DNA from: a virus
Taxonomy: Duplodnaviria > Caudoviricetes
Length of the DNA stretch: 64,000 nt
Virus record (IMG/VR): IMGVR_UViG_3300027804_002812
Location: 262,292 to 326,291 of that record
Reading direction: 5' to 3' (one strand)
Both the position numbers and the translations under genes were made by a program. The notes beneath the pieces are model-generated. The model searched no databases. It was not told the DNA's origin and saw only the letters and a list, made by a program, of their open reading frames with translations. Position 1 is the stretch's first letter. The number at the start of each line of letters is the position of its first letter. Shown one piece after another: positions 42,229 through 58,668 of the stretch.

Positions 42229-45200
42229 ATGCCAGAAAGTTATAAATTTTTCAAAGAAGAAGTAAAAAATTACTTAATCAATAATGTCTCCCTTTCATCA
42301 AAAATATTAGATGTTGGACCAGGTGTTGGTACTTATTCTGAACTCATACGAAATTTTGGTTATAAAATTGATTGTGTCGAAATATGGGAACCATACGTAG
42401 AAACCTATAACTTGAAAGAAAAATACGACAACGTATTTGTCGGAGATATCATGGATTTTGACATATCTAACTACGATTTCATTATCTTGGGGGATGTTTT
42501 AGAACATCTCCCAAAAGAACAAGGTATGTCTTTGATTCAAAGAATTCATAAATTAGGTAAACAATGTTTAGTAGCAGTACCTTATCAAATGGAACAAGGT
42601 GAACATAATGGAAACATCTATGAAACTCATCATCAGTCCGATTTGACTATACAGTTAATGACAGAAAGATACCCTGAACTAACTATGATTTATTCTAATC
42701 ATTACTATGGATATTATGTCTCTACAGAAAAAATAACTATTGGAACTAAATTTGAAAAATCATTTGTTTTATACTCAACTGAAAATTATTTTGATATCCT
42801 CACAGAATGTGTGAAATCAATTAGAGAGTTCAGTGAACTTCCAATCATTGTTTACCTTATTAATTCAGATAGACAAATTGAAGTCCCCAAGACCAAAACA
42901 ATAAGATGGGATTTACAGATTGATGATTTATCTGATGACTTATACCTAAATCATAATAATAATTTTTATATTGATAGAAAAAATCCAACAATCTATAAGA
43001 TTCTAATTCAAAGACCATTAATCGTAAAAGATGCTCTATCAAAATATTCCGATACTATTTGTTATGTTGATAGTGATTCAATTGCAACTCCATTAGTAGA
43101 TACAATATTTTCATATTTCAACCAAACGTCTAATTACCCTTATTTTGTGGAAGGGATTTATGAATTTTTAATACTCAATGGGATAGGAGTCGGAGGCGAG
43201 TTAAATGAAACTTTAGAACATAATGCATGTGAACTTTTTGGAGTAGACCAATCAGTTAGAAAAAATTATAGACAAACTGGCTATTTTATTGCAGGTCAAA
43301 ACACTTATGACTTTTTAGATGAATGGTATTGGATGTGTAATCACCCAAAAATTCTGAATAATATCGGTCATTACACACCATTTAATGAAGAAACAATCGC
43401 AAACGTTTTGCTTTGGAAGTATAATATCCAAGAAGGCCTTCCATATATATATGTCAACGGAACTTTTGACACAATAAATAAAATGTATAATGAAGTAGAG
43501 TACAAAGGAGATGGAATTCGTAATTTTCAAGGAGACTGGCTGAGAGTCCCATATCATAAAGAACACCTTTTGTTTTTTCATGGAGAAAAAAAACCTGAAA
43601 CTATGAGACAAATGGTAGAAGAAATAAAAAAACACAATAACGTATCTGAAGAAATTCAAGTACACTCTCCCGAATCAAATTCAGAAAAACTACGAATTTT
43701 ATTTTTAGCCCCTCACTTATCTACGGGCGGGATGCCAGCATATTTACTCAAAAGAATTGAATCCCTGTCATTACATTATCCATTTATAGAATTTTTCTTG
43801 GCTGAGTTTTGTCAATATTCCACACTATATACGGTTCAACGAGATAGAATAAAAGAAATAGTACCCGAAGAAAGATTTTGGACTATTAATACCTTGAATG
43901 ACCATAATGTTGAGAACTCTATGAAAGTAATTGACCTCATCAAAACTCATTTTATTGATATTGTTCACATAGATGAAATGATTGAAGGTTTTGATTCATT
44001 CAACAAAGTCCCTGACGAACTCAAACATGCTCTATATGACAATAATAGAACTTGGAGAGTTGTTGAAACCTGTCATAATATTTGGTTCGATCCAGAATCT
44101 TCCAAACTATTTCATCCTGACGCTTACGCATTATGTACTCCTTACCACTTGGAAAAAACATTCAAGAAAATGCCTTCACATATGGAAGTTTTTGAATTCC
44201 CAATCGAAAATAGATTTCGATCTAGAGTTGAACAAGTAAGGGCACAAGAGGAATTAGGATTGGACATTTCAAAAGTACACATAATTAATGTTGGACTTTG
44301 GACTTCGGGTAAAAATCAAAGAGAAGGAATTGAAATTGCCAAACATTTTGAAGGAGGAAATGTTGAGTTTCATTTCGTAGGTAATCAAGCATCAAACTTT
44401 GAAAGTTACTGGAAACCCTTGATGTCCGATCTACCATCAAACGTCAGAATTTGGGGAGAAAGAAGTGATGTAGATACATTCATGAAAGCTTCAGATATTT
44501 TGATGTTCAACTCAACTTGGGAATGTAATCCTCTTGTGATACGCGAAGCAGCATCATTAGGTTTGAAAATTATTGCAAGAGACCTTCCACAATATGTCGG
44601 CATGTTTAATGGATTGATTACCCCTCTTACTGATGACATTCCCACAAATGTCAACAATTTACGTAGATTGATTTCCTCAAGTCGTGACTATCAAATTTTA
44701 GATGGTATGACTGAAGAATTTGCAGTAAAACATTATAATCTATATAAATTCTTACTAACTCAAGAACCAAGAAAAAAAACAAAAAGTAATACCAAAGTGC
44801 AGATTAAACAATTTTTTATAAACGAACCTTTCTTGGAAATTGTTGGTCAAAGTGATAGTGAATATGATGTTAAGTTTTTTGACGAGTTCGGTGTCTGTAA
44901 TTATCATAATACGATAAAATCAAACCATTGGATTAAATTAAATCGGAAATACTTTACTAAATGGAATACAAAAATCCTTGAGGATAAAGTTTTAATCTAT
45001 GACGAAACCCTAAATTATGAAAGCAAACGGGTTTTCATAAATTTTGATAGTAGTTCTTTAGGAGATACTGTATCATGGATACCTTATGTCTTAGAATTCA
45101 AAAATACCCATAAATGTGAGGTGATTGTTTCGACATATTGGAACCATTTATTCCGCGAAGCTTATCCTGAATTGGAATTTGTTGAACCAGGAAGTGTTGT

Positions 45201-45861
45201 ACATAATATTCACGGGCAATATAATCTTGGGTGGTTTTATGATAACAATAGAGAACCTACCTTACCAAATACAATTCCGTTACAACAAGCTGCAACAAAT
45301 ATATTGGGGCTACCTTATAAAGAGATTAAACCAAGAATCTCTTATAAAATTCTCGAAAGACCTTATGAAGAAAAATATGTTACAATTGCCACCAACTCAA
45401 CCGCAGGATGTAAGTTTTGGACAAAAGAGGGATGGCAAGGCCTTATCAATTATCTTCATTCTCTCGGATATAAAGTTATCAATGTATCTAAAGAAAACAA
45501 TCGATTTGACAACTGTGAAAAAATAAAAGATACTGCAATGGATTATACAATGAATGTCATCCATCACAGTGAATTCTTCATTGGGTTATCCAGCGGATTA
45601 TCTTGGTTATCTTGGGCAATGGGTAAACACGTTGTGATGATTAGTAATTTCACAGAACCTGACCACGAATTTACTTCTAACTGTACAAGAATAACAAATC
45701 CAAATGTTTGTAACGGATGTTGGAATAGTCCTATATATAAATTTGATAAAGGAGATTGGAATTGGTGTCCAGTTCACAAAGGAACAAACCGACAATTTGA
45801 ATGTCATACATCAATAACACCAGAAATGGTAATAAATAAAATACAACACTTATTAATATGA
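42229..45861 (+). CDS. Four-domain enzyme: SAM methyltransferase + GT-A + GT-B (GT4-like) + TibC/Aah-like protein O-glycosyltransferase
   Basis: ILDVGPGVG (MTase); YVDSDS (DxD); ILFLAPHLSTGG...FNSTWECNPLV..EA (GT4); FDSSSLGDTVSWIPY...FIGLSSGLSWLSW..GK.VVMISNF...CNGCW...WCP...EC (Aah/TibC-like). Confidence 0.8.
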   Translation: MPESYKFFKEEVKNYLINNVSLSSKILDVGPGVGTYSELIRNFGYKIDCVEIWEPYVETYNLKEKYDNVFVGDIMDFDISNYDFIILGDVLEHLPKEQGMSLIQRIHKLGKQCLVAVPYQMEQGEHNGNIYETHHQSDLTIQLMTERYPELTMIYSNHYYGYYVSTEKITIGTKFEKSFVLYSTENYFDILTECVKSIREFSELPIIVYLINSDRQIEVPKTKTIRWDLQIDDLSDDLYLNHNNNFYIDRKNPTIYKILIQRPLIVKDALSKYSDTICYVDSDSIATPLVDTIFSYFNQTSNYPYFVEGIYEFLILNGIGVGGELNETLEHNACELFGVDQSVRKNYRQTGYFIAGQNTYDFLDEWYWMCNHPKILNNIGHYTPFNEETIANVLLWKYNIQEGLPYIYVNGTFDTINKMYNEVEYKGDGIRNFQGDWLRVPYHKEHLLFFHGEKKPETMRQMVEEIKKHNNVSEEIQVHSPESNSEKLRILFLAPHLSTGGMPAYLLKRIESLSLHYPFIEFFLAEFCQYSTLYTVQRDRIKEIVPEERFWTINTLNDHNVENSMKVIDLIKTHFIDIVHIDEMIEGFDSFNKVPDELKHALYDNNRTWRVVETCHNIWFDPESSKLFHPDAYALCTPYHLEKTFKKMPSHMEVFEFPIENRFRSRVEQVRAQEELGLDISKVHIINVGLWTSGKNQREGIEIAKHFEGGNVEFHFVGNQASNFESYWKPLMSDLPSNVRIWGERSDVDTFMKASDILMFNSTWECNPLVIREAASLGLKIIARDLPQYVGMFNGLITPLTDDIPTNVNNLRRLISSSRDYQILDGMTEEFAVKHYNLYKFLLTQEPRKKTKSNTKVQIKQFFINEPFLEIVGQSDSEYDVKFFDEFGVCNYHNTIKSNHWIKLNRKYFTKWNTKILEDKVLIYDETLNYESKRVFINFDSSSLGDTVSWIPYVLEFKNTHKCEVIVSTYWNHLFREAYPELEFVEPGSVVHNIHGQYNLGWFYDNNREPTLPNTIPLQQAATNILGLPYKEIKPRISYKILERPYEEKYVTIATNSTAGCKFWTKEGWQGLINYLHSLGYKVINVSKENNRFDNCEKIKDTAMDYTMNVIHHSEFFIGLSSGLSWLSWAMGKHVVMISNFTEPDHEFTSNCTRITNPNVCNGCWNSPIYKFDKGDWNWCPVHKGTNRQFECHTSITPEMVINKIQHLLI

Positions 45862-46532
45862 ATTTAGAAAACTTTGTTTGGGAACCTAAATGTTATGAAG
45901 GATTCCGAGAAACCGTTGAAAAAGAAATTTTCGTGGATAAAATTTACGAAAGATTTTTTGAAGTTGAAGAGGGAGATGTGGTATTTGATATTGGTGCGAG
46001 TCTTGGTCCATTCACCTATTCTATTTTACACAAAAATCCTTCACAGGTGTTTGCCTTTGAACCAAGTTTTGAAGAATTCAAGACATTAGTTTTGAACACC
46101 AGACATGGAAATGTTACTCACATAAACAAAGGTATTTCCAACACCATTGGAGAATTCGAATTTTCAGAAGTATTTGATGTTTCAGGTAATCATAAACTTT
46201 ATTCAACCACATTTAATAAAGTAATCCAAGATTACAATATTAAAAAAATTGATTTCTTAAAAACTGACTGTGAAACTGGAGAATACGACATTTTCACTTT
46301 GGAAAATTTGTTTTGGATTAAAAATAATGTGAGAAAAATTTCAGGTGAATGGCATTTAAGAGAAGAATGGATGAAGGAAAAGTTCAGAATATTTAGAGAT
46401 GTTTATTTAAGATTTTTCCCTAACTTCAAAGTATATTCATTTGATGGTATTGACATTACTTGGTCAATTTGGAATGAAAATTTTATTCCTTATTACAACG
46501 AAATTATGATTTATATCGATAATAGAAATTAA
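45858..46532 (+). CDS. FkbM family methyltransferase
   Basis: VVFDIGASLG, AFEP, IDFLKTDCETGE. Confidence 0.85.
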   Translation: MNLENFVWEPKCYEGFRETVEKEIFVDKIYERFFEVEEGDVVFDIGASLGPFTYSILHKNPSQVFAFEPSFEEFKTLVLNTRHGNVTHINKGISNTIGEFEFSEVFDVSGNHKLYSTTFNKVIQDYNIKKIDFLKTDCETGEYDIFTLENLFWIKNNVRKISGEWHLREEWMKEKFRIFRDVYLRFFPNFKVYSFDGIDITWSIWNENFIPYYNEIMIYIDNRN

Positions 46533-47338
46533 ATCAAACTACTTGGTACGTAATTTCTGAAGTTTGAATAAATGTGATTCAATAATGATTTTGAATAATT
46601 TTGATTGTGTTTCGGTCCCGGATGAATATTATCAACCGCATCATCTATGAATGACCCATATGTCCCATCAAACCTATTGAACTCATTATGTGTTGTAGGA
46701 ATACCCATCCATCCATTCCACAACCAATTACATTTTTTGGATTCTAAAAAATATTTTATTAAGAGGTGATTTTTATACCAATTCATAAAATCTTGATAAT
46801 CATTCTGAATCGTTGTTAAACTATGTTGGATTTCTCTTCCCTCTTCAGTTTCCTCTGTGTAACCCCACTGTGAAGTTATCATAAATGGTTCTAATCCTCC
46901 ATCTTTGGTGTATAGTTCTCTTCTTTGTGGAGAAGTATACATAATCAAAACTAAATCAGGTTTGATAAAATCATAATAAGTTATCAAACATCTTGATATG
47001 TAATCATTACTTCTCCCTCCCATACCAAAATTATGGTTTACTCCATTCGAAATTAATTTAGAAAATTGAGCCGGCCACGTTTCATCATTATTAACACCAA
47101 CCCCTTCTGTATTTGAGTCCCCAATACTCATTATCTTAAATCCGTCTTTATGAATAGAGTCTCCTCTGAACCCCAATTCATTATATGTATAGGTACATAA
47201 ACGAGTTTTGTCAGATCCAGATGTTTGATACGACTTGTTGACCTTCTCAGATAAATTCCATTTATAGCTCGAAATTTCAAATCCTTCAGGTGTCCAATAT
47301 TTCAAATTATCTACACAGGGGTAATAGGTTTGATTCAT
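46529..47338 (-). CDS. SGNH/GDSL-like hydrolase or O-acyltransferase-fold protein
   Basis: GDSNTEG, NFGMGGRSN, DNIHPG blocks. Confidence 0.7.
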   Translation of the reverse strand: MNQTYYPCVDNLKYWTPEGFEISSYKWNLSEKVNKSYQTSGSDKTRLCTYTYNELGFRGDSIHKDGFKIMSIGDSNTEGVGVNNDETWPAQFSKLISNGVNHNFGMGGRSNDYISRCLITYYDFIKPDLVLIMYTSPQRRELYTKDGGLEPFMITSQWGYTEETEEGREIQHSLTTIQNDYQDFMNWYKNHLLIKYFLESKKCNWLWNGWMGIPTTHNEFNRFDGTYGSFIDDAVDNIHPGPKHNQNYSKSLLNHIYSNFRNYVPSSLI

Positions 47339-48414
47339 TATATTAAAGTTTTAACAGGCGTAATAAATTCTTGTAGGTTACTCCAACTATAATTGTTTGG
47401 TAAGAAAGAATTAACTTCTTTTATAAATTCATTATACTCCGAATGAGATTCATTCCAAATTTGTTCTAATAAAAAATCCTCTTCACTAAATGTACCCCAA
47501 TTAGTTATCTTACCAAAAAACACATTTACCTTTTCACCAAAAATAGAATACATCAAATCGTAGAATAACTTCATTTCTTTATAATTTTTTTGTTGAACTA
47601 CAAATGAAGTTTTTATGGTCCTTAAAGTTGGTATTGTTGAAATAAACTTTAAGTTATCTAATAATATATCCCAATTGCCATTTATTCTTGTTTTTGTTTC
47701 ATAGGTTTCTTTAGTTCCTGCATCAACACTAATTTCACAACTTGTAACATATTGATGTATGTTCGGCATCGATTCCCACATTTCTTTAGTCCAACGTGTA
47801 GCATTAGTGTGTAAGTGAATTGATTTCAGTTTTGGCCATTTGGATTTATCAAAATTTCTTAAAAAATCTCTAAAACCAACTGACACAAATGGATCTCCAC
47901 TACCCGTTATATATAATGTATTCACCTCGTTTCCATATGCATCTTCAATATCTTGTATGTCTTGTTTTACTTTTTTTATTTTATTACTGTCCGCAATAAT
48001 CATATTTAATCGACATGAAGGACATTCAAGATTACAGCTCCTGTCCATTGAAAATTGTACTAACTGTGGCGAAGTTAATTTTCCTTCCTTATATTTTTTT
48101 ATTTTTATATCTAAATTAGAGCTTAATTTATCTTTGTGGTAAAGAGGATAGACTCTACCAACATCTCCAAAGGTTTTCAATTGATGTATAAACGGGCAAT
48201 GATTATGATCACAATATCTATATGACCCATCTAATATACTATCTCGAATATCATTTGCTTCTTCTGAATTCCATGCGTCGTATGGTTTAGTATTTTCAGG
48301 TAAAAATTTAGTTAACCATGACGCACAACATAAAAATCTTTGATGGTCATGAATTTCTATAGAAGTGAAGGGAACCGCACAAATATAATTTTTTAATAAA
48401 TTTTTTTTCACCAT
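47338..48414 (-). CDS. Radical SAM enzyme with N-terminal SPASM/twitch-like domain
   Basis: CAVPF...LCC...C..CP N-domain; CNLECPSC; TGSGDPF, HTNA, ISVDA. Confidence 0.85.
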   Translation of the reverse strand: MVKKNLLKNYICAVPFTSIEIHDHQRFLCCASWLTKFLPENTKPYDAWNSEEANDIRDSILDGSYRYCDHNHCPFIHQLKTFGDVGRVYPLYHKDKLSSNLDIKIKKYKEGKLTSPQLVQFSMDRSCNLECPSCRLNMIIADSNKIKKVKQDIQDIEDAYGNEVNTLYITGSGDPFVSVGFRDFLRNFDKSKWPKLKSIHLHTNATRWTKEMWESMPNIHQYVTSCEISVDAGTKETYETKTRINGNWDILLDNLKFISTIPTLRTIKTSFVVQQKNYKEMKLFYDLMYSIFGEKVNVFFGKITNWGTFSEEDFLLEQIWNESHSEYNEFIKEVNSFLPNNYSWSNLQEFITPVKTLI

Positions 48415-48471
48415 AAAATTATCTCAATTTATTTTTCGTATCTAATAGACACACAGAAATTTTCTATCATT

Positions 48472-48921
48472 TTATAAAAAATTTCTTTGGCTTTCTACAT
48501 CAAGAGGATTATTCATCATAAACCCAATCAAAGTATACCTTTTTCCAACACAATTATTTACTCGATGGTATTCTTCTCCGCTAAAATATACCATATCTCC
48601 AACCTTTGGAGTGAATTCATTGTTGTCAAAAATAAGCTCACCTCCCGTAAAATCTTCATTAAGAAAAACAATGAAAGACCATGGATTATGATGCAAGTGT
48701 GGAATTTCAACCTGATTAATACTGTCATCCACCATTTGAACTCTGAACTTTTTGAAAGAAAAATTTGAGAACTTTTTTACTTCTAATTCTCTTCCCATTA
48801 AATCAACAAAATAAAATTTATAATATTCATCCCCATAATATTTTTTATCTTCATTGTGGAAAATATCCATGAAATAATTAATTTCATCAGAAGTTAAAAA
48901 AGATGGAATATATTTTATCAT
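48472..48921 (-). CDS. 2OG-Fe(II) oxygenase
   Basis: PHLH..WSFIVFLN..FTGGEL...HRV....GKRYTL. Confidence 0.85.
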   Translation of the reverse strand: MIKYIPSFLTSDEINYFMDIFHNEDKKYYGDEYYKFYFVDLMGRELEVKKFSNFSFKKFRVQMVDDSINQVEIPHLHHNPWSFIVFLNEDFTGGELIFDNNEFTPKVGDMVYFSGEEYHRVNNCVGKRYTLIGFMMNNPLDVESQRNFL

Positions 48922-48923
48922 TG

Positions 48924-49451
48924 TTAAAATAGTTTTGTTTCAGTTCCTAATTCTTTATAAGTTATAAAATAAACAAAAGAATATCGTGTACCTTTGGTGA
49001 TTTCGGTAACTTCATGAAGAACTTCAGAATCCATTTTATATAATAATCCCTTTTCTGTCGCCAACTTTCCATCAGGATTATAGGTGATAAGTTCACCTCC
49101 CTCAAAATCATCATTTAATTTGGCTCCAATGATTAAGGCCCAATCATTTTGTCTTTCTCTATCAACGTGTTTGGTAAATTTACCACCCGTAAAAAATTCA
49201 TGAGCATAAAAATAGTTGCCTTCTTTTATTTTATTGTTTGGATACTCGTCTTTCAAAAAATCAGAAATCAAATCGAAAAACCATTGTGTCGACTCTTCTC
49301 GTTTGACTTCACAAATATTATAATCTAATCTAGATTTATGTAATCCCGCAGGTGAACAAACATCAGGGCAATATCTAACATTAGATTTACCAAAATAGGA
49401 AATCCATGATATTACTTCGTCACACTGCTCATTTGTCAATTTCATAATCAT
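48924..49451 (-). CDS. 2OG-Fe(II) oxygenase (prolyl-hydroxylase-like)
   Basis: KHVD...LN.DFEGGEL...HEV..ITKGTRYS. Confidence 0.88.
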   Translation of the reverse strand: MIMKLTNEQCDEVISWISYFGKSNVRYCPDVCSPAGLHKSRLDYNICEVKREESTQWFFDLISDFLKDEYPNNKIKEGNYFYAHEFFTGGKFTKHVDRERQNDWALIIGAKLNDDFEGGELITYNPDGKLATEKGLLYKMDSEVLHEVTEITKGTRYSFVYFITYKELGTETKLF

Positions 49452-49993
49452 TATATAATTTGTTGAGGTATCATTAAATCACTTTTTTTCACCCAAAATA
49501 CCATAGAGTATCTTACACCTTCAGTAACTTCACTAACCCAATGTGGTATTTTTGAGTCAAAACTGATACAATTTCCTCTTGAGGAGTTAGCAATATAATC
49601 TTCAAACATCAAGTCACCCCCTACATAAGATCCATGTTCAGACAATTGGATAATATACGACCTATATCTTTCCCCTCTTTCCTTGTCACCAGAATCATAA
49701 TTAAGAACATTATTATCCCTATGAACAGGGAAAGAATCTCCAACGACATATTTCCTTACCAATAAGTTATGAACCTGTTCTTCATTTGAGAATGTAAATG
49801 GTTTTAGATTCAACTCAGGAAAGATAGAAAAAAACTCTTCGGGTATATCTTCGTGTGATACTAGCCCTTCTTGCCCACATTTACCATATCTCCTCCCCCT
49901 TTCAATAACATCCAAAACTCCACTTTCAAAGTATTGAATGAAATAATCACACAAACTATGACTCAATAAAATTTTTTCTTCAATTGATTTCAT
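49451..49993 (-). CDS. 2OG-Fe(II) oxygenase (prolyl-hydroxylase-like)
   Basis: HRD...YVGGDL...PHWV..VTEGVRYSMV; likely start MKSIEEK at 49993 (ATGA overlap). Confidence 0.88.
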   Translation of the reverse strand: MKSIEEKILLSHSLCDYFIQYFESGVLDVIERGRRYGKCGQEGLVSHEDIPEEFFSIFPELNLKPFTFSNEEQVHNLLVRKYVVGDSFPVHRDNNVLNYDSGDKERGERYRSYIIQLSEHGSYVGGDLMFEDYIANSSRGNCISFDSKIPHWVSEVTEGVRYSMVFWVKKSDLMIPQQII

Positions 49994-50571
49994 ATGATTT
50001 GTTTCTCTATTTGTTTTTGATTGAGTATATCGATACAAAAACTTCCAGCATAAACTATCCTCTTTTTTTCCGAGTTTGGAGTCGGTATTGCAGTATGTCG
50101 TATGTCTGCTGGAAATATAAATATATCCCCAACTTCAGGTAAAAATTTATATCTTTGTTTATTTTCGTCTTCAAATACTATACATCCTTCATCCCCACTT
50201 ATTTCATCTGTTGTCTGTAAATAAAACGTGAAAGTATAATCTGTTAAAATATTTGACCTACCAGAAGGATGAACTTGAATGTGTTGATGCATCCATTCTA
50301 AATTGAACCCTTTTTTTTGAGTATACACCCAATAATGTTGAGCATAATTGGTGAATTTTTTATTAGATATATTCTCTATTTGATTTTTAATATATGAATT
50401 TATCGATTGAAAACACTCCGTTTCTATTTCTATCCAAACAGAATTATCATTGGTATGTGTTGCCATTCCATCATTTAACTCAACATATTTCAAAAATTCA
50501 TCAATAGAATACTCATTATTGTACTTCCCTTTATATATTGTGAACTTTTCAGATAACTTTATTGGCGTCAT
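49990..50571 (-). CDS. Putative 2OG-Fe(II) oxygenase (TIGR02466-like)
   Basis: MHQH...FYL...G.I.F...PEVGDIFIFPADIRHTA.P...RIV. Confidence 0.8.
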   Translation of the reverse strand: MTPIKLSEKFTIYKGKYNNEYSIDEFLKYVELNDGMATHTNDNSVWIEIETECFQSINSYIKNQIENISNKKFTNYAQHYWVYTQKKGFNLEWMHQHIQVHPSGRSNILTDYTFTFYLQTTDEISGDEGCIVFEDENKQRYKFLPEVGDIFIFPADIRHTAIPTPNSEKKRIVYAGSFCIDILNQKQIEKQII

Positions 50572-51170
50572 ATGATAGATGTTGGTGACTTGAATTTTAT
50601 AATACCATCTCCCTTTACGAAAATTCCATTCTTAAAATAAGTCCAGTTAATCGTATGAATTGGAGTAACTATTTTTGTAAATTTATGTGGGTCAATCTTA
50701 TATTCATAATAATTCAACTCACTTTGTTTTCTAAATGTAAAATAATTAAAAATCGATAAAATACAATTATCATTAGCAATAGTTTTACAATAATCTTCAA
50801 ATTTTTCGTAATTGATATCGTCATGTGTATCCATGAATATTCCATCAAATTTTTGATTAAGTTTTGGGATAACCTCCACCCAATCTCCAAATATAATGGT
50901 TACATTTGATTTGTTTTTAGCCCAATTTTGAGCTTTTTCATAAATCTGAGGATTAATTTCAATACAGGTATAATGATTAGCTAAACTACTCATTTTGTTT
51001 GCAGAAAATCCCATACCAAAACCAACATCTAAAACGTTACCCCCATTTTGACAAACTATATATGAGTACATTTCCATCAAAGATTTTGATGCAGAATCCA
51101 TAACAATAGATCTCGGGTTATTCTTAAAATGAATATTTTTATCCGTAAAAACGACTACTTCATCTTTCAT
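50568..51170 (-). CDS. Class I SAM methyltransferase, RMT2/guanidinoacetate-methyltransferase-like
   Basis: VMD....LME, GGNVLDVGFGMG, CIEINP, GDW, FDGIFMDT. Confidence 0.75.
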   Translation of the reverse strand: MKDEVVVFTDKNIHFKNNPRSIVMDSASKSLMEMYSYIVCQNGGNVLDVGFGMGFSANKMSSLANHYTCIEINPQIYEKAQNWAKNKSNVTIIFGDWVEVIPKLNQKFDGIFMDTHDDINYEKFEDYCKTIANDNCILSIFNYFTFRKQSELNYYEYKIDPHKFTKIVTPIHTINWTYFKNGIFVKGDGIIKFKSPTSII

Positions 51171-51182
51171 GTGTATTATACA

Positions 51183-51614
51183 TTATAGTAAATCTTTTTT
51201 ATTAAAACGCTCGTATCTCCCATAATTACTCAATAATTCTTCGCCCTTATATATTATTCGGTTAGTAAGGAATGTGTCCTTATCTATGTTGGACTTATCG
51301 AATCCACTATTAATAAAGTAGTATGGTGTAGTATAAATCCAATGGCATCCTTTTGTCAACTTTACATAGGTACGGTTATCTGACGGAAAATCAGGTCCAT
51401 ATAAAAATATGTCTTTGATATGAGTATAAAGTTCGTTAGGTAATAGAAGTAATTCAGATTCTAATATTGGATACAAACCTGTTTCTCCATTCCAAACTTC
51501 AAATGGATTAATTTGAGATGGAATGTCTTTGATTGCAAATACACCAATTCCTTGGACTCTACTTGGTTTTAACCTTACAAAAATTTTGGTAGATATATAC
51601 TCGAAGGGAGTCAT
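51183..51614 (-). CDS. SET domain protein
   Basis: LKPSRVQGIGVFAIKDIP, YFINS (NH motif altered), I.KGEELLSNYG. Confidence 0.8.
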   Translation of the reverse strand: MTPFEYISTKIFVRLKPSRVQGIGVFAIKDIPSQINPFEVWNGETGLYPILESELLLLPNELYTHIKDIFLYGPDFPSDNRTYVKLTKGCHWIYTTPYYFINSGFDKSNIDKDTFLTNRIIYKGEELLSNYGRYERFNKKDLL

Positions 51615-51757
51615 TACATATGCTTTGCAATAAACAATTCAAAAAACTTGGCAACTGTTTGATTGACTTGTGTTTTTTCAGTTTGACTTAAAGCACTTGT
51701 TTTTCTTGTCTCAACTTGAGACATAGTTACTTTCTTATATAATGATGGATTTGTCAT
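51614..51757 (-). CDS. Unannotated 47-aa peptide between the ATP-grasp/Hint gene and the SET gene
   Basis: MTNPSLYKKVTMSQVETRKTSALSQTEKTQVNQTVAKFFELFIAKHM*; starts 7 nt after the upstream stop, and its TAA overlaps the SET ATG (TAATG). Confidence 0.75.
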   Translation of the reverse strand: MTNPSLYKKVTMSQVETRKTSALSQTEKTQVNQTVAKFFELFIAKHM

Positions 51758-51764
51758 GTTTTTA

Positions 51765-54020
51765 TTATTTATTGTGAACTAAAATTTTATTTGCAAAAAA
51801 GTTATGATTTTCCGAAACACTTAATAGATTGTAAACAGTATGTGAGCTTACATCTTCTTTAACACTAATAATGGTTATATCAGTTTTATCATCTTTAATA
51901 CATACATCACCTTCTTGAAGATTTTTCGCTTCAACCCAACCTTTTTCTTTTACGAAGAATGGATGTTCAGGAGTTGTAGTTAATAATGTCGTATCATCAA
52001 ATACCAAATCAATAACATCTTCAACATTATGTATTTTCAAATCACCAACAATACCTAATTCAGTTTCTCCAGTCAATTCATTATAAGTAAGAACTTTTTC
52101 CCCAACAACAACATCTTCAATATTTTTGTATTCTCCATCAAGTAAAGTTATTTTGGTACCCGCAACAAAACAACGATTGTGTACTAATCGATTGTTTGCA
52201 AAAAAGTTATGGTTGTTTTCCACTACTTTTACATTATAAACAATTACTGCCTCTGAAATAATATCAATTGATTTAATAAGGGACTCTGTACCATCTTCCT
52301 TAAGGATTTTAATTCCGACTTCAGCTTGTCTAGTGGTCAACCCATAAACGTTAAGTGTATACTTAGGGTCTTGTGATATCCAACCGATTTGACGTGAATA
52401 AATTGGGTGGTCCAACGTTGACTCCAAAATTGTATCATCCTCGAATGTATACTTTACTGTTTTGTCAACTTTTCTAGAACCAACACCTCTAACTTTTTGT
52501 TTTTCAACCATAGAGGTATTAAAATTATAAGATAAAACTACATCACCAATTTGAATATTTTCAACATTTTTTTGTGTTTTATCTTCCAAAGTTATTTTTG
52601 TACCAGCAACAAAACAAGGTGCGTTATGTGAAATTACTCCGTTGAATGGTGTTGACCCACTAATAATATAGGTATCAGTATCTTCAGCGTCAAGTTCTAC
52701 TAATTTCAAACTAGTATCCGTAGTGACATAAAAATTGACCTCATCGATCCCAATCAAATCGCCATCGATGTCATACAAATAATCAACTTCAGGTCTCAAA
52801 TAAACGGAAAGTTTATATTTGGAAATGTTTGTGGAAGAATCATAAACTAAAAAGTGTTTATTTGCCCCGATAAATTTAGATTCTGAATCAACCACGATTT
52901 CAACTAACCCCCCATACTTCAATTGTTTCTCATCCTTAAAAACAACTTCAGATGTAGTCATATAAGACCCTTCGGGAAAATATTGTCCTTCAAATGTCCA
53001 ATTCATAATTTCTGAATTTATTTCAACTTGAGGAGACCCTGAAATGAAAAACGATTTAATAAATTCTCCGACACCAACATCTGCAATCGGCTTATACTCC
53101 TCATCCTCCATTAAAATTTGATGAGTTGACAATAGTCCACCACAATCCAATTTTATGAAATTTGTGGTGTATTCATAATAATGATGGTCAGATATTTTAT
53201 TAACATATTGAGTATCATCAACTTCAGATTGAATACTGGTTGGCAATTCGAATATTGAGCTAATCTTATAATTGTGTAATGTAATTATATCTAAATTACC
53301 TCCATACACAATATGAAAACTTCTAACCGAGATGATATGATCATCCTCATCTAAACTAGAAGGCCCATAATGATATTGTTGAATAATTTTATTTTCGGTA
53401 TTTATTGAACTTAAAAAAGATGCCCATCTGTCCTCGTCACTTTCACCTTCAACAGTAGAACCTATTTTATAAAAATCTATTGGATTGAATTGTTCAATCA
53501 TGTCCTTAACCGCAACATCAGGGACATTTGGTGAATTAATTATTGAATCTAAACTATTGTTAGATTCTGTTGAGGACGAATAAAAGTACGAAACTACTTT
53601 GGATGATTCATTATTTGACGTAAATAAATTAAGAAGTTCTACAGTACCTTTACAATAGGTACTATCAAAAAGTGCAGACTCGTCATAAGCCAATCTCAGT
53701 ATAAATTTATCACTTGAGTCAGGAATCGTCGCAGGATAAATTGTATTAATATCTTCATCATGTAAATTTATAACCGTAACAAATGGTGCGTCAGCAGTTA
53801 TAGTATTTGAAATATGAGTTACAATTTTATCATGAATGAAAGGCTTATATACAATATCAAGTTGAGTAATGTTATTTGTCTGAAGTACACTTATAAATTC
53901 GGTAAAATCGAAATTATATAATTCATTACCAACGATACTTGTATCGGTGTTAAACTCCAATAATCTTAAATTATCATTCGTGTCTTTAACAAAGTCAGCC
54001 GAAAATAAAGTTCCTTTCAT
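51765..54020 (-). CDS. Circularly permuted ATP-grasp ligase fused to three tandem Hint domains
   Basis: N-terminal SADF...LLEFNTD (D9/E22/N24), AVK, IIQQY, SVR; Hint1 about G295-N466, Hint2 C469-N615, Hint3 C617-N750, then K751. Confidence 0.8.
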   Translation of the reverse strand: MKGTLFSADFVKDTNDNLRLLEFNTDTSIVGNELYNFDFTEFISVLQTNNITQLDIVYKPFIHDKIVTHISNTITADAPFVTVINLHDEDINTIYPATIPDSSDKFILRLAYDESALFDSTYCKGTVELLNLFTSNNESSKVVSYFYSSSTESNNSLDSIINSPNVPDVAVKDMIEQFNPIDFYKIGSTVEGESDEDRWASFLSSINTENKIIQQYHYGPSSLDEDDHIISVRSFHIVYGGNLDIITLHNYKISSIFELPTSIQSEVDDTQYVNKISDHHYYEYTTNFIKLDCGGLLSTHQILMEDEEYKPIADVGVGEFIKSFFISGSPQVEINSEIMNWTFEGQYFPEGSYMTTSEVVFKDEKQLKYGGLVEIVVDSESKFIGANKHFLVYDSSTNISKYKLSVYLRPEVDYLYDIDGDLIGIDEVNFYVTTDTSLKLVELDAEDTDTYIISGSTPFNGVISHNAPCFVAGTKITLEDKTQKNVENIQIGDVVLSYNFNTSMVEKQKVRGVGSRKVDKTVKYTFEDDTILESTLDHPIYSRQIGWISQDPKYTLNVYGLTTRQAEVGIKILKEDGTESLIKSIDIISEAVIVYNVKVVENNHNFFANNRLVHNRCFVAGTKITLLDGEYKNIEDVVVGEKVLTYNELTGETELGIVGDLKIHNVEDVIDLVFDDTTLLTTTPEHPFFVKEKGWVEAKNLQEGDVCIKDDKTDITIISVKEDVSSHTVYNLLSVSENHNFFANKILVHNK

Positions 54021-54076
54021 AATCTTTTTGGTTATATATTAAATATCTTGCAAGGATTTAATCTGTTTATGTTATT

Positions 54077-54619
54077 CTACAAAAGGGTCTTGCCCTTAGA
54101 AGTTGTAGTTCTCGAAATACAAATGTGAGTTAGTTCCAAACTTTGCGGTAATTTTAACTGAAAATCGATAACATCGTATATTTCAGAAAAATTAACCTTA
54201 TTAAAACCAACTCTTTTATTGTGTTCCAAAGTATTCGGATATAAATTAACAATTCTCACTTTTTTATCGAGATTTGAATTAATCATCTTCAAAGAGGATT
54301 GTTGTAACTTTAACTTACTTTCCCGATAATCGTCAAAACTTCCATTATTAAAAATGGCCGATGTCAGAATGTTGAAAATTGTCTTATCCTTGTATTTCCA
54401 CTGGTCGAAAAGTTCTTCGAATATTTTCTGTTGGTAACTCGGATGATAAGTATTATTTATGAAAACATCTAAATCAACAACATCATTCAATATTTTTTCG
54501 TAATTTTTCAAGTCATATCCATTACTTCTTGAAAATCCGATAACTTCATGATTTTTTCCCAACAAATCAAACAACCCTTTTCCTAAGAAATCACTGTGTC
54601 CTGTTATTCCTATCCTCAT
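54077..54619 (-). CDS. Short SDR-type NAD(P)-dependent oxidoreductase
   Basis: IGITGHSDFLG, FINN, YRESK (YxxxK). Confidence 0.75.
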   Translation of the reverse strand: MRIGITGHSDFLGKGLFDLLGKNHEVIGFSRSNGYDLKNYEKILNDVVDLDVFINNTYHPSYQQKIFEELFDQWKYKDKTIFNILTSAIFNNGSFDDYRESKLKLQQSSLKMINSNLDKKVRIVNLYPNTLEHNKRVGFNKVNFSEIYDVIDFQLKLPQSLELTHICISRTTTSKGKTLL

Positions 54620-55128
54620 ATCAAACTAACTGGTTCTTTGATATTTTCCTTGAATAAAAATATTATTAGTGAATATCTAATCCCATTTTCAATTTTGGTC
54701 ACCTCGTGTTCTCTAGTATTTCTGAAAGAATATATCGTCCCCGCTTTTTTCGGAATAATCTCTTTCGGTCCATACAAAATAAAATCACCTCCATCATAGT
54801 CATCATTCAAACAAACTCCGACATTTAATTTTTGATTAGGATAGTATATATCACTATGTCTTTCAAATTGATTTCCGGACTCGTATTTGTGTAAATGTAT
54901 TACTTCAAACGGTTTGACTATTTCAACATTCTCATCTAAAAGCAAAAATTCAGTTATTTTATCAAAAATCCAAGAGACATTTTCATTTCTAAAAATGTTG
55001 TAATACGTATATGTTATTTTTTCTCTTGGTCTTTCAACATGTATACTATTTGCATCTCGATGAGTACCTTCAATTTCTTGAGTTAATTTTATTATCTTAT
55101 CACACTCTTCTTTTGAAAACGATACCAT
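54616..55128 (-). CDS. 2OG-Fe(II) oxygenase (prolyl-hydroxylase-like)
   Basis: RHSD...LNDDYDGGDF...HEV..IENGIRYSL. Confidence 0.88.
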   Translation of the reverse strand: MVSFSKEECDKIIKLTQEIEGTHRDANSIHVERPREKITYTYYNIFRNENVSWIFDKITEFLLLDENVEIVKPFEVIHLHKYESGNQFERHSDIYYPNQKLNVGVCLNDDYDGGDFILYGPKEIIPKKAGTIYSFRNTREHEVTKIENGIRYSLIIFLFKENIKEPVSLI

Positions 55129-55164
55129 GTTTTAATAATAAAATAATTTGATTAAAAATCAAAT

Positions 55165-55281
55165 TTAATGGTTGTAAATAAAAGGGTCTCTCTTTTTCAA
55201 CTCTTCAATTTTCTTTTTTAATTCTTTTTTCCTTTTGCGGTCTTTAATTTTTTTCAAAAACCAGTCAATAATTTTCTTCAT
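55165..55281 (-). CDS. Small basic 38-aa 'KRDPFIY' protein
   Basis: MKKIIDWFLKKIKDRKRKKELKKKIEELKKRDPFIYNH*; start overlaps the carbamoyltransferase stop (ATGA). Confidence 0.7.
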   Translation of the reverse strand: MKKIIDWFLKKIKDRKRKKELKKKIEELKKRDPFIYNH

Positions 55282-56945
55282 AGTATTTTGTGTATTATAT
55301 AATTATCTAAAACTAACAAGTCCAAGTCAGTATCCTTGAAAGTTTCTATTGCATTAAACGGATTCAGTACCATTGTTTTATCTTTAACGTTGAATGATGT
55401 ATTCAATATAATTGGATACCCACTTAGTTTTTCAAACTCAATTAATAAGTCGTGAATAACAGTATTTTCATATACAGTTTGAATTCTTGACGTTCCGTCC
55501 ACGTGAACAACTGCCGATAATTTATCTGCGTATTCTTCTCTAACTTTAACAATTTGATTCATGTATGGTACATCATCAATTGTGTAGAAAAACTCATTCT
55601 GTTTCTCTTTAATAACCATAGGGGCAAAAGGACGAAACCCCTCTCTTTTCTTAATCAATTTATTAATTCTGGATTTCATATCGGGTACAGTAGGGTCGGC
55701 TAAAATAGACCTGTGTCCTAATGCTCTTGCTCCGAATTCGATTCTATCTCTATACCACCCAACTACTTTACCTTCATGGATTTTTTTGGCTACGTATTTT
55801 ATTAATATATTGTAATCGTGAATTTCAAAAAAGTTCAAATTTTTAATGTGACCCATATAAAATTCAACATCATACTTTGGTCCCAAAAAAGGATTCTTGG
55901 TAACTCTTTTTGTTAATTTTTTATTTTGTACAAGGTAATGAATACAAGCTCCAACACAGGATCCAGCATCAGATGGTGCGACTGGTATCCAAATTTTTTC
56001 AAACTCAGAATTGGATACTATCTTCCCATTCGCAGTACCATTGTACGCCGAACCACCTCCTAAGCAAAGATTATTACTACCAAGATTTTTCAAACTTTTG
56101 ATAATATCAAATAAAACTTCTTCGTATCTTAGTTGAACTGCCGCTGCTAAATTTTGATGAATTGTAGTAATTTCTTCTTCAGTTAATCTTGGTGAAATAC
56201 CTAAATGTTCTATTAGTTTTTCGTTGAACATCAATTTTTCTGACTTATCCCAACAAAAAACATCCATATCACAGATTAATTCTCCATCTTTGAATTCTAT
56301 TAAACTTCTAATTTTTTCAATATACTCTTTAGGGTCTCCGTATGACGCTAATCCCATTAATTTATATTCTCCTTCATTTGGTTTGAATCCCAAATACGAA
56401 GTCATTGTAGAATAATAAAGTCCTAATGAATGTGGATATTTACCCAAATCATGATATTCAATTCCATCATTATCCGCCAAACCAAAAGATAATGTGTCAA
56501 TTTCACCAACACCATCAATAGATAAACAGATTGCCCTTTCAAAATCGGAAGTGAAAAAAGAATAATACTGATGTGCCAAATGGTGTTCGGAGTAAAATAC
56601 TCTTCCCTTAAATGGCTTCAAATGTTTATTTACATCTGATATATTTTTTAAGATTTTAACTAAAGATTTCAAAGAATATTTCGGTGACGTAAAAAAGTTT
56701 TTCTTGATGTTACTCAATACTCTTTTTAGTTTCAGATTGAGGTCTTCATAATAACAAACCATTTCAATATCATCATAGGTTATGTTATAATATCCGAAAA
56801 TATGTTGAATCGTATTAATTGGAAAAGAACTGTCGTGTTTGATTCCCGTAAATTTTTCCTCTTCACAAGCAAACACCAACTCCCCGTTTTTGAATAGACA
56901 GGCGGATGAATCGTGATAAAAGGATGAAATGCCAAGTACGTACAT
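55278..56945 (-). CDS. NodU/CmcH-family carbamoyltransferase
   Basis: LGISSFYHDSSACL, EEEKF, HHLAH, DGVGE, SLGLYY, GEYKLMGLASYG, EFGARALGHRSILADP, FRPFAP, LNTSFN. Confidence 0.95.
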   Translation of the reverse strand: MYVLGISSFYHDSSACLFKNGELVFACEEEKFTGIKHDSSFPINTIQHIFGYYNITYDDIEMVCYYEDLNLKLKRVLSNIKKNFFTSPKYSLKSLVKILKNISDVNKHLKPFKGRVFYSEHHLAHQYYSFFTSDFERAICLSIDGVGEIDTLSFGLADNDGIEYHDLGKYPHSLGLYYSTMTSYLGFKPNEGEYKLMGLASYGDPKEYIEKIRSLIEFKDGELICDMDVFCWDKSEKLMFNEKLIEHLGISPRLTEEEITTIHQNLAAAVQLRYEEVLFDIIKSLKNLGSNNLCLGGGSAYNGTANGKIVSNSEFEKIWIPVAPSDAGSCVGACIHYLVQNKKLTKRVTKNPFLGPKYDVEFYMGHIKNLNFFEIHDYNILIKYVAKKIHEGKVVGWYRDRIEFGARALGHRSILADPTVPDMKSRINKLIKKREGFRPFAPMVIKEKQNEFFYTIDDVPYMNQIVKVREEYADKLSAVVHVDGTSRIQTVYENTVIHDLLIEFEKLSGYPIILNTSFNVKDKTMVLNPFNAIETFKDTDLDLLVLDNYIIHKIL

Positions 56946-57472
56946 TATGAATTATATTTTTCAGGATATTCGTTAATTAAGGTTATCCCTCCCTCATTTA
57001 TTGCATGGTCATAAGCGTTTTTAACATCATCCGCAGTCAAACAATCAAAAAATTTTATTGTTTGAGTTATTGACTGAAACTCTTTGAAATAATTATTTCT
57101 GTGTTGAGGGCCTGGATTCAAAGGTATTTCCGATCCTTTACCAACTCTAATAATCATATTTGGTTTCCACTGACCATTGCTCATTAATTCCATCTTATCA
57201 ACATGGTTTATTAATTGATTAGCCGCACAAATCAAAAAGTCCCATCTCGGATAAAATGTAATCACAAATTTTCCTGTCATTGCAATACCCAAAGACATTC
57301 CCATTTGAGAATCTTCCATCACCGGTAATTCAACCATTTTTTCTTTTGGAACATCGACCAAAGTTGAACTCATCGGGTTTCCCGGAAATAATATCTGTTG
57401 TCCAAGAAAAATAGTATCATCCATTTTTCCTAACTTGGTCATTGCGATTGTTAATGAATCTTTGTATTCCAT
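56945..57472 (-). CDS. TPP-dependent E1-beta/transketolase pyrimidine-binding domain (no C-terminal domain)
   Basis: IFLGQ, ELPVME..QMGMSLG.AM.G, DFLICA.NQL.NH, GPQH; only 175 aa. Confidence 0.8.
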   Translation of the reverse strand: MEYKDSLTIAMTKLGKMDDTIFLGQQILFPGNPMSSTLVDVPKEKMVELPVMEDSQMGMSLGIAMTGKFVITFYPRWDFLICAANQLINHVDKMELMSNGQWKPNMIIRVGKGSEIPLNPGPQHRNNYFKEFQSITQTIKFFDCLTADDVKNAYDHAINEGGITLINEYPEKYNS

Positions 57473-58668
57473 TATATTAAACTTTTGAAAAACTTATAAT
57501 CAGTTTCATCTTGTAATATACTCGTAACTTTTTTCTTATTAAGTTCAAATCTTTCCTGATTATTTTTATAAAAATTAATTATTTCGTCTTTGATAGAATT
57601 TAATCTTTTCACTTCATCAACAAACATAAAAAGCCGTTTTCTCGGGTCTTTTTCATTGTCATAAGAATAATCAATAATATCATCAAACAAATCAAAATCA
57701 TATCTTTCTTTCAAGAACTTATTATGTTCAAAATTAGCCAATATCAAAGGAATTTGAGAATAATAAATTGGCATCAATGATTTTTCTGTAATATGGATTA
57801 CATCTGTGGATATGTAACCAGTTTCGGTAACAATATTAACATATGAATTTCTATAAGGATTCATTTCATATGTTTTATAAAAGTCAATGAAGTAAGGTGG
57901 CTGGTCAACTCTATAATCTTCTTCAAACCTACTTTTTTTAATCCCTGATTTTTGAAGAAACAATATTTCATTATAATATTCTTTGAAATCGTCCCTATCA
58001 AAAACTTCAAAAAATAAGTTGTATGATGGTGTTCCATCTGGATCAGAGAATCGTTCGTTTAATTCATTACCTCGTAACATCGTCCAATCAACTTCATCTA
58101 ATATCCCTTCTCGTTTCAGTAAAGCTAACAGAGACACTCTATGTGGTTTTAACATTCTGTTATAACACATAAAAAATGATTCTTTATCTTTTTGAAATTC
58201 GTACTTGAATGAGGTCATTCCTTCGACCGCCACATAAGGTAATCTATTTGAAGTATGTCCAACAACTTTACTATTCAACTCATTGATTAATTTTTTTATT
58301 TTCTGATTTCCATTGATTGCAATTATCTGATTCGAATTAATCGATTCTTCATTACAATATTTTTCGATAAGTTTTATTACGTTTCCATTGTCGGACTCAT
58401 GTTCCGCTAAAATAACAAGAAAACAATTGGAGTATAATTTCATTAACTCTTTTACTTTTGAGGATGCAGGAAGTGATTGGAAATTTTCCATATAAGTTCC
58501 TGTTATTGTAAATGAATAATATTTTTGTTCGGAGTCAACCTCAAAATTATTTATATCAATCATTTTAATCCCGTCAACTTTGTTAGCGGTCAAAGTGTTA
58601 AAAATATGTTCCTTTTCGTTTTCGATATTACTATCAAACAATAAATTAAAATACTTCATAATCTTCAA
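57472..58668 (-). CDS. Putative GT-B glycosyltransferase (GT10-like TEK motif)
   Basis: YNR..KPHR..LL; YVNIVTET...ITEKSLMPI...IPLIL; FDLFDDIIDYSYD. Confidence 0.5.
   Translation of the reverse strand: MKIMKYFNLLFDSNIENEKEHIFNTLTANKVDGIKMIDINNFEVDSEQKYYSFTITGTYMENFQSLPASSKVKELMKLYSNCFLVILAEHESDNGNVIKLIEKYCNEESINSNQIIAINGNQKIKKLINELNSKVVGHTSNRLPYVAVEGMTSFKYEFQKDKESFFMCYNRMLKPHRVSLLALLKREGILDEVDWTMLRGNELNERFSDPDGTPSYNLFFEVFDRDDFKEYYNEILFLQKSGIKKSRFEEDYRVDQPPYFIDFYKTYEMNPYRNSYVNIVTETGYISTDVIHITEKSLMPIYYSQIPLILANFEHNKFLKERYDFDLFDDIIDYSYDNEKDPRKRLFMFVDEVKRLNSIKDEIINFYKNNQERFELNKKKVTSILQDETDYKFFKSLI

Follow-up and report, generated by a model that had tools for sequence, protein, structure and literature searches.

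What would a bacteriophage do with a ligase gene, a very short open reading frame (ORF) and a row of protein-modifying enzymes packed into one operon? The question is raised by a minus-strand gene run at positions 48472-55128 of a 64,000-nucleotide stretch of DNA (hereafter the window), which is the final 64 kb of the 326,291-bp IMG/VR record IMGVR_UViG_3300027804_002812, derived from an uncultured freshwater T4-like jumbo phage. A preliminary description, made from the sequence alone, had likened the run to a bacterial cluster for ribosomally synthesised peptides that are modified after translation (RiPPs), built around the ligase and the short ORF. Tentatively, and with slightly less than even confidence, we favour another reading, namely that the module is a ligase hub scaffolded by a small protein, which recruits tailoring enzymes carrying a common C-terminal tail, and not a classical RiPP cluster. 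Only the ligase and the small protein form the core of the module; the tailoring set changes between phages.

The ligase gene (51765..54020; all features lie on the minus strand unless stated otherwise) encodes 751 amino acids with an ATP-grasp domain followed by three Hint units. Beginning 7 nt past its stop codon is the gene for a 47-amino-acid partner protein, here called pep47 (51614..51757). The neighbourhood survey proposed in the preliminary description was carried out on 82 related loci, comprising 80 from IMG/VR and two metagenome contigs, and ligase and small ORF turned out to be an almost invariant pair. In 80 of the 82 loci an ORF of 43-53 amino acids begins approximately 0-100 nt past the ligase stop codon, the distance being 35 nt or less in all but two. 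The median ratio of nonsynonymous to synonymous substitution rates (dN/dS) was 0.23 over 67 pairs, i.e. the small ORF is under purifying selection, and with its constant position this establishes the 47-amino-acid ORF as a real gene. In the simplest loci the pair stands between a conserved gene of 120 amino acids and PhoH. One full-length locus (L077, from about 11970) is without the small ORF; the ligase is followed there by an ORF of 218 amino acids beginning MSFLPYSKVRLADGSYKSFN, seemingly a further Hint-like start.

What we regard, from the sequences, as the strongest sign that the tailoring enzymes form one system is a common C-terminal tail, which the preliminary description overlooked together with the variability of the tailoring set. 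The C-termini of twelve proteins within and around the run consist of two aliphatic residues that follow polar or basic ones. In order of position the proteins are a GDSL/SGNH-like hydrolase, weakly assigned and the last gene of the minus-strand run (46529..47338; ...PSSLI), a twitch-type radical S-adenosylmethionine (SAM) enzyme (47338..48414; ...VKTLI), four 2-oxoglutarate (2OG)-Fe(II) oxygenases named a (48472..48921; ...QRNFL), b (48924..49451; ...ETKLF), c (49451..49993; ...PQQII) and d (49990..50571; ...EKQII), a class I SAM methyltransferase (50568..51170; ...PTSII), a SET-domain methyltransferase of 143 amino acids (51183..51614; ...KKDLL), a short oxidoreductase of 180 amino acids with the short-chain dehydrogenase/reductase (SDR) fold (54077..54619; ...GKTLL), a fifth 2OG oxygenase, e (54616..55128; ...PVSLI), and two proteins further upstream, treated below, that end ...HKIL and ...FKSLI. 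The consensus is K-[STKN]-[LI]-[IL]-COOH, with K at position -4 in 56%, S, T, K or N at -3, L or I at -2 in 89% and I or L at -1 in 92%.

The tail is carried by 13 of 17 consecutive genes here and by approximately 10% of genes genome-wide, for which the binomial chance is of the order of 1e-10. Genome-wide enrichment by itself is weak (8.6% of called genes and 7% of discarded ORFs), and the signal rests on clustering and on conservation among orthologues. Across the 82 loci we compared 15 unrelated enzyme families, and in 13 of these the tail is found in 71-100% of the distinct orthologues: four 2OG paralogue groups and the family x157, two SET groups, the methyltransferase, the radical SAM enzyme, the SDR and three unknown families. 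It is present in 38 of 40 radical SAM, 12 of 12 SDR and 55 of 57 oxygenase e orthologues. The other two families, oxygenase d and the GDSL hydrolase, have it in about half of their orthologues, and just 0-14% of PhoH, GMD, epimerases, 2OG oxygenases of the sugar cluster, ligase and pep47 carry it. In the SDR the tail is predicted to be disordered, residues 174-180 having a predicted local distance difference test (pLDDT) value below 50.

We considered whether the tail is a by-product of the ATGA and TAATG overlaps that join many of the genes, and rejected this. The GDSL hydrolase, the SDR and oxygenase a are tagged without an overlapping start codon, pep47 and one of the thiamine pyrophosphate (TPP) enzyme genes upstream (TPPb) overlap a start codon and are untagged, and positions -3 and -4 are constrained as well. 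The codons used in the tail also vary (TTA, TTG, CTT, CTA, ATA, ATC, ATT and TTT).

Another explanation is that two unrelated things lie side by side. The ligase and pep47 would have a role of their own, e.g. modification of a host protein or metabolite, and the tail would be read elsewhere, as a ClpX-type degron, a signal for a sliding-clamp-like hub or a signal for capsid targeting, with a shared hypervariable island giving rise to the clustering. The tail resembles the C-terminal signal by which ClpX recognises MuA, which is RRKKAI (PMC8138137); about 20 tagged genes are found elsewhere in the genome, and basal loci hold the pair beside PhoH with few tagged genes. We nevertheless consider this explanation unlikely, for the tagged fraction has a sharp maximum of 87% directly past the small ORF (gene +2) and decays from there, to 54-67% at +3 to +7 and to 11-16% at a distance of about 14-16 genes (63 unique loci). 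Moreover, none of five 2OG homologues that belong to cultured phages has the tail; these proteins, encoded by cyanophages, a Methylophilales phage and a Xanthomonas phage, stop right past the last beta-strand, and in that phage collection the ligase domain was not found.

As to the tagged genes elsewhere in the genome, a Pfam search with ten of them gave almost nothing. Four to five are found where the record begins (C1:2502-9201, L087), one being GDSL-like and the others without a Pfam match. Because these tagged genes sit at the very start of a linear record, the tagged island probably continues across the record ends, so that the genome is perhaps circularly permuted or complete. A second and looser group of approximately ten tail-bearing genes (...KLI, ...NLI, ...DLI, ...KLL, ...KLF) was observed at C1:216079-249358 (L088, L089), and the five genes tested from it had no Pfam match. 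On the opposite strand of the window, at 42229-45861 (+), a methyltransferase/GT4/GT9 fusion protein of 1210 amino acids ends ...QHLLI, and the tag may thus extend past the minus-strand operon into glycan genes.

The identities given to the tailoring enzymes in the preliminary description were for the most part borne out. Pfam PF13640, of the prolyl 4-hydroxylase (P4H) type, was matched by all five 2OG oxygenases, with E 1.3e-9 for oxygenase e and with 22.8 bits, under the 27-bit cut-off, for oxygenase d. The radical SAM gene was recognised by Pfam and by NCBIfam NF033640 with 63.6 bits, under the family cut-off. The SDR gave no Pfam match, yet its AlphaFold2 (AF2) model (pLDDT 87.5) matched classical SDRs in Foldseek with E 9e-9 and TM 0.65-0.76, and the motifs TGxxxxG and YxxxK are conserved, with G7, G13, Y98 and K102 invariant. 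The SET protein alone likewise had no Pfam match; a profile of its family matched SET domains in the PDB with E 2.7e-7 over positions 10-141 of 142, and one homologue bears a weak precomputed PF00856 match. For the methyltransferase the class I SAM assignment stood (Pfam Methyltransf_25, E 3.5e-8), and the label 'GAMT-like' is supported solely by a precomputed PF27704 match of a homologue.

The neighbours of the pair are no chance assortment, because 2OG, SET, methyltransferase and radical SAM genes cluster right beside it across the loci. SET genes occur in a minority of loci only, and so do the methyltransferase genes. In L021-L027 (about 12040-12944 in L021) two tandem SET paralogues of 157 and 144 amino acids lie directly past the small ORF, and in other relatives fused methyltransferases of 329-380 amino acids were observed (L007:13499-14638, L072:13294-14280). 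A tagged family of 189 amino acids, x189 (L003:12942-13511 and relatives), begins ...AEPRSGSSNL, a start that presumably recalls the loop by which sulfotransferases bind 3'-phosphoadenosine-5'-phosphosulfate (PAPS) and that would add another kind of tailoring enzyme.

Is pep47, then, a precursor peptide? In an alignment of 59 distinct sequences Y7 is invariant, K8 is found in at least 90%, and a C-terminal amphipathic helix (...KFFELFIAKHM) is conserved. Conservation runs from end to end, with Y7-K8 and the helix as the most conserved parts, and there is no division into a leader and a hypervariable core. The complex of ligase residues 1-468 with ATP, Mg and pep47 was predicted in three runs, together with three controls. 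The ipSAE score was 0.91, compared to 0.02 for the best of the three controls; in the calibration of the score 58 of 80 solved complexes, and 2 of 110 mismatched pairs, attain this mark, counts that are only approximate here, since custom alignments and riding ligands were used. At least 96% of the contacts are shared by the three runs, and the partner has a pLDDT of at least 92. In the model, the degenerate first Hint unit contributes residues 429-433, which pair with residues 6-12 of pep47; pep47 residues 20-23 contact ligase residues 250-257, and its C-terminal helix lies on residues 8-20, 129-142 and 232-238 of the ATP-grasp domain. Judged by this model, pep47 looks like a subunit that clasps the ATP-grasp domain and the degenerate Hint unit rather than a leader-core substrate.

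These results bear directly on the possibility of a genuine RiPP or other peptide natural product, in which a 47-amino-acid precursor would be modified by the ligase, oxygenases, methyltransferases and radical SAM enzyme and released as a bioactive compound. The co-located tailoring enzymes and the short ORF of that reading are present: the ORF is strictly coupled to the ligase, enzymes of RiPP type adjoin it, and the N-terminal strand of pep47 is modelled as a beta-augmentation, the way in which leader peptides bind. The other ingredients did not stand. Conservation over the full length without a variable core speaks against a precursor, and so does the modelled complex, where the ligase buries almost every one of the 47 residues; the tailoring set, too, changes among phages while the peptide is constant. 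A scan of the ORFs between 41283 and the end of the window, several of them without a family match, turned up no recognisable leader peptidase or exporter; the sole candidate for a release enzyme is the weak GDSL hydrolase. The ligase, finally, is outside the graspetide type known from RiPP clusters. A RiPP is therefore distinctly unlikely in our view.

The assignment of ATP-grasp to the 751-amino-acid protein held and could be refined to a circularly permuted domain of the glutathione/glutathionylspermidine-synthetase type (53145..54020, ligase residues 1-292). Plain sequence searches with the ligase domain, the SET protein and the SDR in PDB, Pfam, NCBIfam and PHROGs yielded no usable match, and structure or profile methods were therefore needed; the degenerate Hint unit and pep47 had no PHROG match either. 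Ligase residues 1-295 were modelled by AF2 with an alignment of 61 sequences, giving a pLDDT of 95 for the ATP-grasp domain. The best matches among solved structures are YgiC, YjfC, glutathionylspermidine synthetase (GspS) and eukaryotic glutathione synthetases (Foldseek E 5e-6 to 1e-4). In an independent all-against-all structure alignment (VIA) the top 11 neighbours are permuted ATP-grasps, with Z of 7.4-9.6 and alignments starting from residue 1-3 (best: Z 9.6, 208 residues, root-mean-square deviation 4.0), whereas non-permuted ATP-grasps (RimK, LysX/ArgX, TTLL, Ddl) align to the ligase only from about residue 50. The Mg-ligand motif D9...E22-x-N24 comes first in the chain, at the very N-terminus, which agrees with the permuted topology.

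Among 76 relatives D9, E22, R109 and D119 do not vary, and at least 90% of the sequences keep N24, K172 and R233; metal- or nucleotide-binding roles can be suggested for individual residues of this set. Because of the permuted fold and the conservation of catalytic residues, the ligase is very probably active as an enzyme. All of the top 11 structural neighbours activate the C-terminal carboxylate of a peptide, and by homology this would be the substrate of the phage ligase too.

The ligase family comprises 820 homologues, which fall into 250 clusters at 50% identity and lie on contigs of up to 326 kb; in nearly all homologues the ligase domain begins at residue 1. The family is nearly restricted to uncultured aquatic T4-like giant phages. 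A tblastn search of the whole ligase against cultured phages matched helicase inteins on the Hint part only and did not find the ligase domain. In cellular genomes (185,579 species) the domain was found on one 2.8-kb contig in a Cyanobium metagenome-assembled genome bin, too short to name a host; an earlier scan of cellular genomes had found none.

The name 'Hint3' in the preliminary description was right as to the number of Hint units, of which the first is degenerate and the other two are intact. The degenerate unit (52623..53144, residues 293-466) aligns to the canonical units in hhalign with 97.7% probability and E 1.6e-12; Cys1 and the block B His are lost in most relatives, and E446, D449, H465 and N466 are conserved. 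After an Ala-Pro spacer (52617-52622) follows unit 1 (52176..52616, residues 469-615), which has Cys1, TxxH and the terminal His-Asn and is matched by PT-HINT, Intein_splicing and other Pfam families. A single Arg (52173-52175) separates it from unit 2 (51771..52172, residues 617-750), and beyond this there is only Lys751 and the stop codon (51765-51770).

Over 207 family members, Cys1 was found in 373 of 374 canonical Hint units and the terminal His-Asn in 330 of 336. T67, H70 and N147 are invariant in the Hint-unit alignment, the residue after His-Asn is R or K in most units, and a bare C, S or T at position +1 was never recorded. The last unit is usually trailed by a lone K (120 family members). 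The closest solved structures are the bacterial intein-like (BIL) domain 2lwy (profile E 1.6e-24) and the Hint-type chain 6y75/6tmm. Type-A BIL domains form an N-terminal thioester and cyclise their terminal Asn, and cleavage dominates over splicing (PMC4031507). The defining traits of this type are present in the phage units, which we accordingly describe as type-A BIL-like, and we infer that they would cleave themselves. Family members carry one to three canonical units, the degenerate unit is missing in some, and in some relatives it directly abuts the Cys of the next unit. Because the full-length members retrieved carry Hint units after the ligase domain, the array is an integral, selected part of the ligase protein and not a mobile intein; it is C-terminal, with only Lys751 beyond it, and contains no endonuclease domain.

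One may ask whether the spacers themselves are the product, the tandem Hint units excising them as activated or cyclised micro-peptides that the neighbouring enzymes modify. Each spacer (Ala-Pro, Arg and Lys here, Pro-rich stretches of 5-9 residues elsewhere) does have a site of Asn cyclisation upstream and a Cys1 thioester site downstream, and many are rich in Pro, which is trivially explained by linker function. We hold this idea to be very improbable. It fits the data worst because the spacers are not conserved, in length (0-9 residues) or in sequence; the ...HNK end is near-universal while SET genes are found only in a minority of loci, one dipeptide for each 751-amino-acid protein would be very costly, and the ATP-grasp domain and pep47 would be left without a role. 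As a general rule, a match between such micro-exteins and the neighbouring enzymes was rejected on the same spacer lengths and ...HNK frequency, with methyltransferase genes, like SET genes, in a minority of loci.

The Cys1 thiols also invite a comparison with protein conjugation. In a machine of this kind the ATP-grasp domain would activate the C-terminus of the tagged enzymes or of pep47 and couple it to a lysine or to the Cys1 thiol of a Hint unit, similar to Pup/PafA, TTL/RimK or an E1-E2 relay, and the use could be tethering, packaging or regulation. It would be in keeping with the action of all permuted ATP-grasp relatives on peptide C-terminal carboxylates, with the clustering of a shared free C-terminal tail about the ligase, with the nearly invariant Lys8 of the partner and with intact Cys1 thiols fused to the ligase. 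We find it quite improbable, as there is no known target, ligation of whole enzymes by their C-termini is without precedent, and the Hint units retain the full set of self-cleavage residues, which would be superfluous in a simple thiol carrier. Somewhat more improbable still is the specific route in which the carboxyl group of the K-x-L-I tail or of pep47 would pass through an acyl phosphate to a Hint Cys1 thioester and then to an amine, making the module a phage functional analogue of the E1-E2/Pup relay with a C-terminal address tag.

In the ligase-hub reading that we tentatively favour, the ligase would be made as a pro-protein, consisting of a permuted ATP-grasp carboxylate-amine ligase, the degenerate Hint unit and two type-A BIL-like Hint units lacking the downstream nucleophile. 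The BIL units would cut themselves off by means of the Cys1 thioester and Asn cyclisation, leaving the mature ligase, and pep47 would wrap the ATP-grasp domain and the degenerate Hint unit as an obligate partner. With ATP, this complex would activate the C-terminal carboxylate of a peptide as an acyl phosphate and link it to an amine. The most likely carboxylate would be pep47's own C-terminus, in which case pep47 may serve as a small carrier or scaffold in the manner of LysW and the pearlin scaffolds. The tagged enzymes would dock on the hub by their flexible tails and modify the attached product, with a set that varies from phage to phage: P4H-type 2OG oxygenases, SET and class I methyltransferases, SDR, radical SAM enzyme and GDSL hydrolase. 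Small carriers handled by an ATP-grasp have precedents, and the ArgX/LysX-LysW structures (PDB 3vpb, 5k2m) are among the fold matches of the ligase.

Several points weigh against this model. The tail is linked to the ligase by co-location and lineage only, and given its likeness to the MuA signal a host protease or another phage hub might read it. Some loci hold the ligase-pep47 pair with few or no tagged neighbours. Residue 47, the C-terminal residue of pep47, is outside the confident contacts of the complex model, in which entry into the active site is not seen, and the last residue varies (L, S, T or M, at times with extra residues). A self-cleaving array that works for a single turnover has no obvious role in the model beyond maturation, and a Pro at position -1, as found before BIL unit 1, is unfavourable for N-terminal cleavage.

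Every minus-strand ORF named in the preliminary description was found at its coordinates, and the tight packing was confirmed as well. Most gene junctions of the run are overlaps, of the form ATGA at oxygenase e/SDR, methyltransferase/oxygenase d and oxygenase d/oxygenase c, and TAATG at pep47/SET and oxygenase c/oxygenase b. The start codon of oxygenase c is likelier to be the ATG at 49993, which overlaps the upstream stop codon as ATGA, than that at 50038, to which the ORF extends. The gene unit reaches at least 46529, taking in the radical SAM and GDSL-like genes downstream.

Upstream of the run lies a cluster of sugar-nucleotide, carbamoyltransferase and glycosyltransferase genes. The carbamoyltransferase (55278..56945) ends ...HKIL, with the tail in only 4 of 18 orthologues; its membership in the system is doubtful, and it is perhaps part of the sugar cluster next to it. 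An ORF of 38 amino acids at 55165-55281 (-) overlaps the carbamoyltransferase stop codon by ATGA and is separated from the next gene by an AT-rich gap of 36 nt. At 56945-59298 (-) a split TPP-dependent enzyme (an E1-alpha-like part of 209 and a transketolase-pyr-like part of 175 amino acids) surrounds a protein of 398 amino acids without a Pfam match; this protein ends ...FKSLI, and the tail is found in only 4 of its 10 orthologues.

The record also encodes the T4-type major capsid protein gp23 (PF07068, E 1e-62), a phage-type DNA primase and an SbcC-like nuclease subunit. Identical DNA was found again in freshwater metagenomes from about 12 studies (2017-2022), and a megablast search of the window against cultured phages gave zero matches at the DNA level. 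In a freshwater metatranscriptome run only a few short contigs matched the 50-60 kb part of the window; those within 47488-59298 cover stretches of the methyltransferase, oxygenase e, carbamoyltransferase and TPP genes with full or nearly full identity. These are hints that the region is transcribed, from too few contigs to show expression.

We found no description of such an architecture in the literature on ATP-grasp and Hint domains in phages and on tandem BIL arrays. The parts are from known superfamilies, and the module as a whole is apparently undescribed. If the ligase-hub reading is true, this would be the first case of unrelated tailoring enzymes being marked for one hub by a short C-terminal tail that they have in common, and also the first in which nature has made a tandem intein-like array an integral component of an enzyme. 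The module would offer a testable explanation for a long-standing puzzle, the many P4H-type 2OG oxygenases of aquatic myoviruses. The tail could serve as a genome-mining handle for members of the system that are as yet unknown, and protein engineering would profit both from self-cleaving nucleophile-free Hint units and from a docking tail of 4 residues.

With GspS, YgiC, YjfC and eukaryotic glutathione synthetase, the phage ligase has in common the fold, its circular permutation, an N-terminal location of the Mg-binding D...ExN strands and the positions of conserved Lys and Arg residues. The GspS/YgiC/glutathione synthetase group phosphorylates the C-terminal carboxylate of a peptide and then adds an amine. 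Unlike these enzymes the phage ligase is much smaller (about 290 amino acids) and only 8-14% identical to them, has Hint domains fused to it, is predicted to need a 47-amino-acid partner and is almost exclusively viral. Graspetide and microviridin clusters are alike in having an ATP-grasp beside a short ORF and sometimes a methyltransferase; their ATP-grasps belong to a non-permuted clade, and their precursors have a leader-core organisation with T/S/K...D/E core motifs that are missing in pep47.

The Hint units resemble type-A BIL and pretoxin-HINT domains (Clostridium thermocellum BIL4, PDB 2lwy; PF07591), as mini-Hints of 135-150 amino acids with Cys1, TxxH and terminal His-Asn, without a +1 nucleophile and without a homing endonuclease. 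Unlike known BIL domains the phage units form a C-terminal tandem with spacers of 0-9 residues that is obligatory in a phage enzyme family, and they have in front a degenerate Hint that retains the C-terminal cleavage residues only. In contrast to pretoxin-HINT there is only a Lys beyond the last unit, and hence no toxin or C-extein to release. As in the MuA-type signal RRKKAI-COOH, basic residues precede an aliphatic C-terminus in the tail, and the proteins that bear it are otherwise unrelated; it differs in having the form K-[STKN]-[LI]-[IL] and in marking approximately 15 enzyme families around one ligase gene.

In TglA pearlin chemistry a product is built on the C-terminus of a scaffold of about 50 residues and is then tailored (PMC9016710). 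The phage ligase is permuted, unlike the RimK/LysX type and unlike the tRNA-dependent peptide aminoacyl-tRNA ligase (PEARL), and the common tail of the tailoring enzymes is absent from both the LysW and the TglA systems. Members of the LysW family have an acidic end of the EDWGE type, which pep47 does not have; pep47 is basic, has no Cys and no zinc ribbon and ends ...AKHM, the likeness being functional only. What the phage module would share with LysW/LysX-ArgX and with TglA is a protein of about 50 residues encoded next to the ligase and a build-up at its C-terminus that is followed by several tailoring enzymes.

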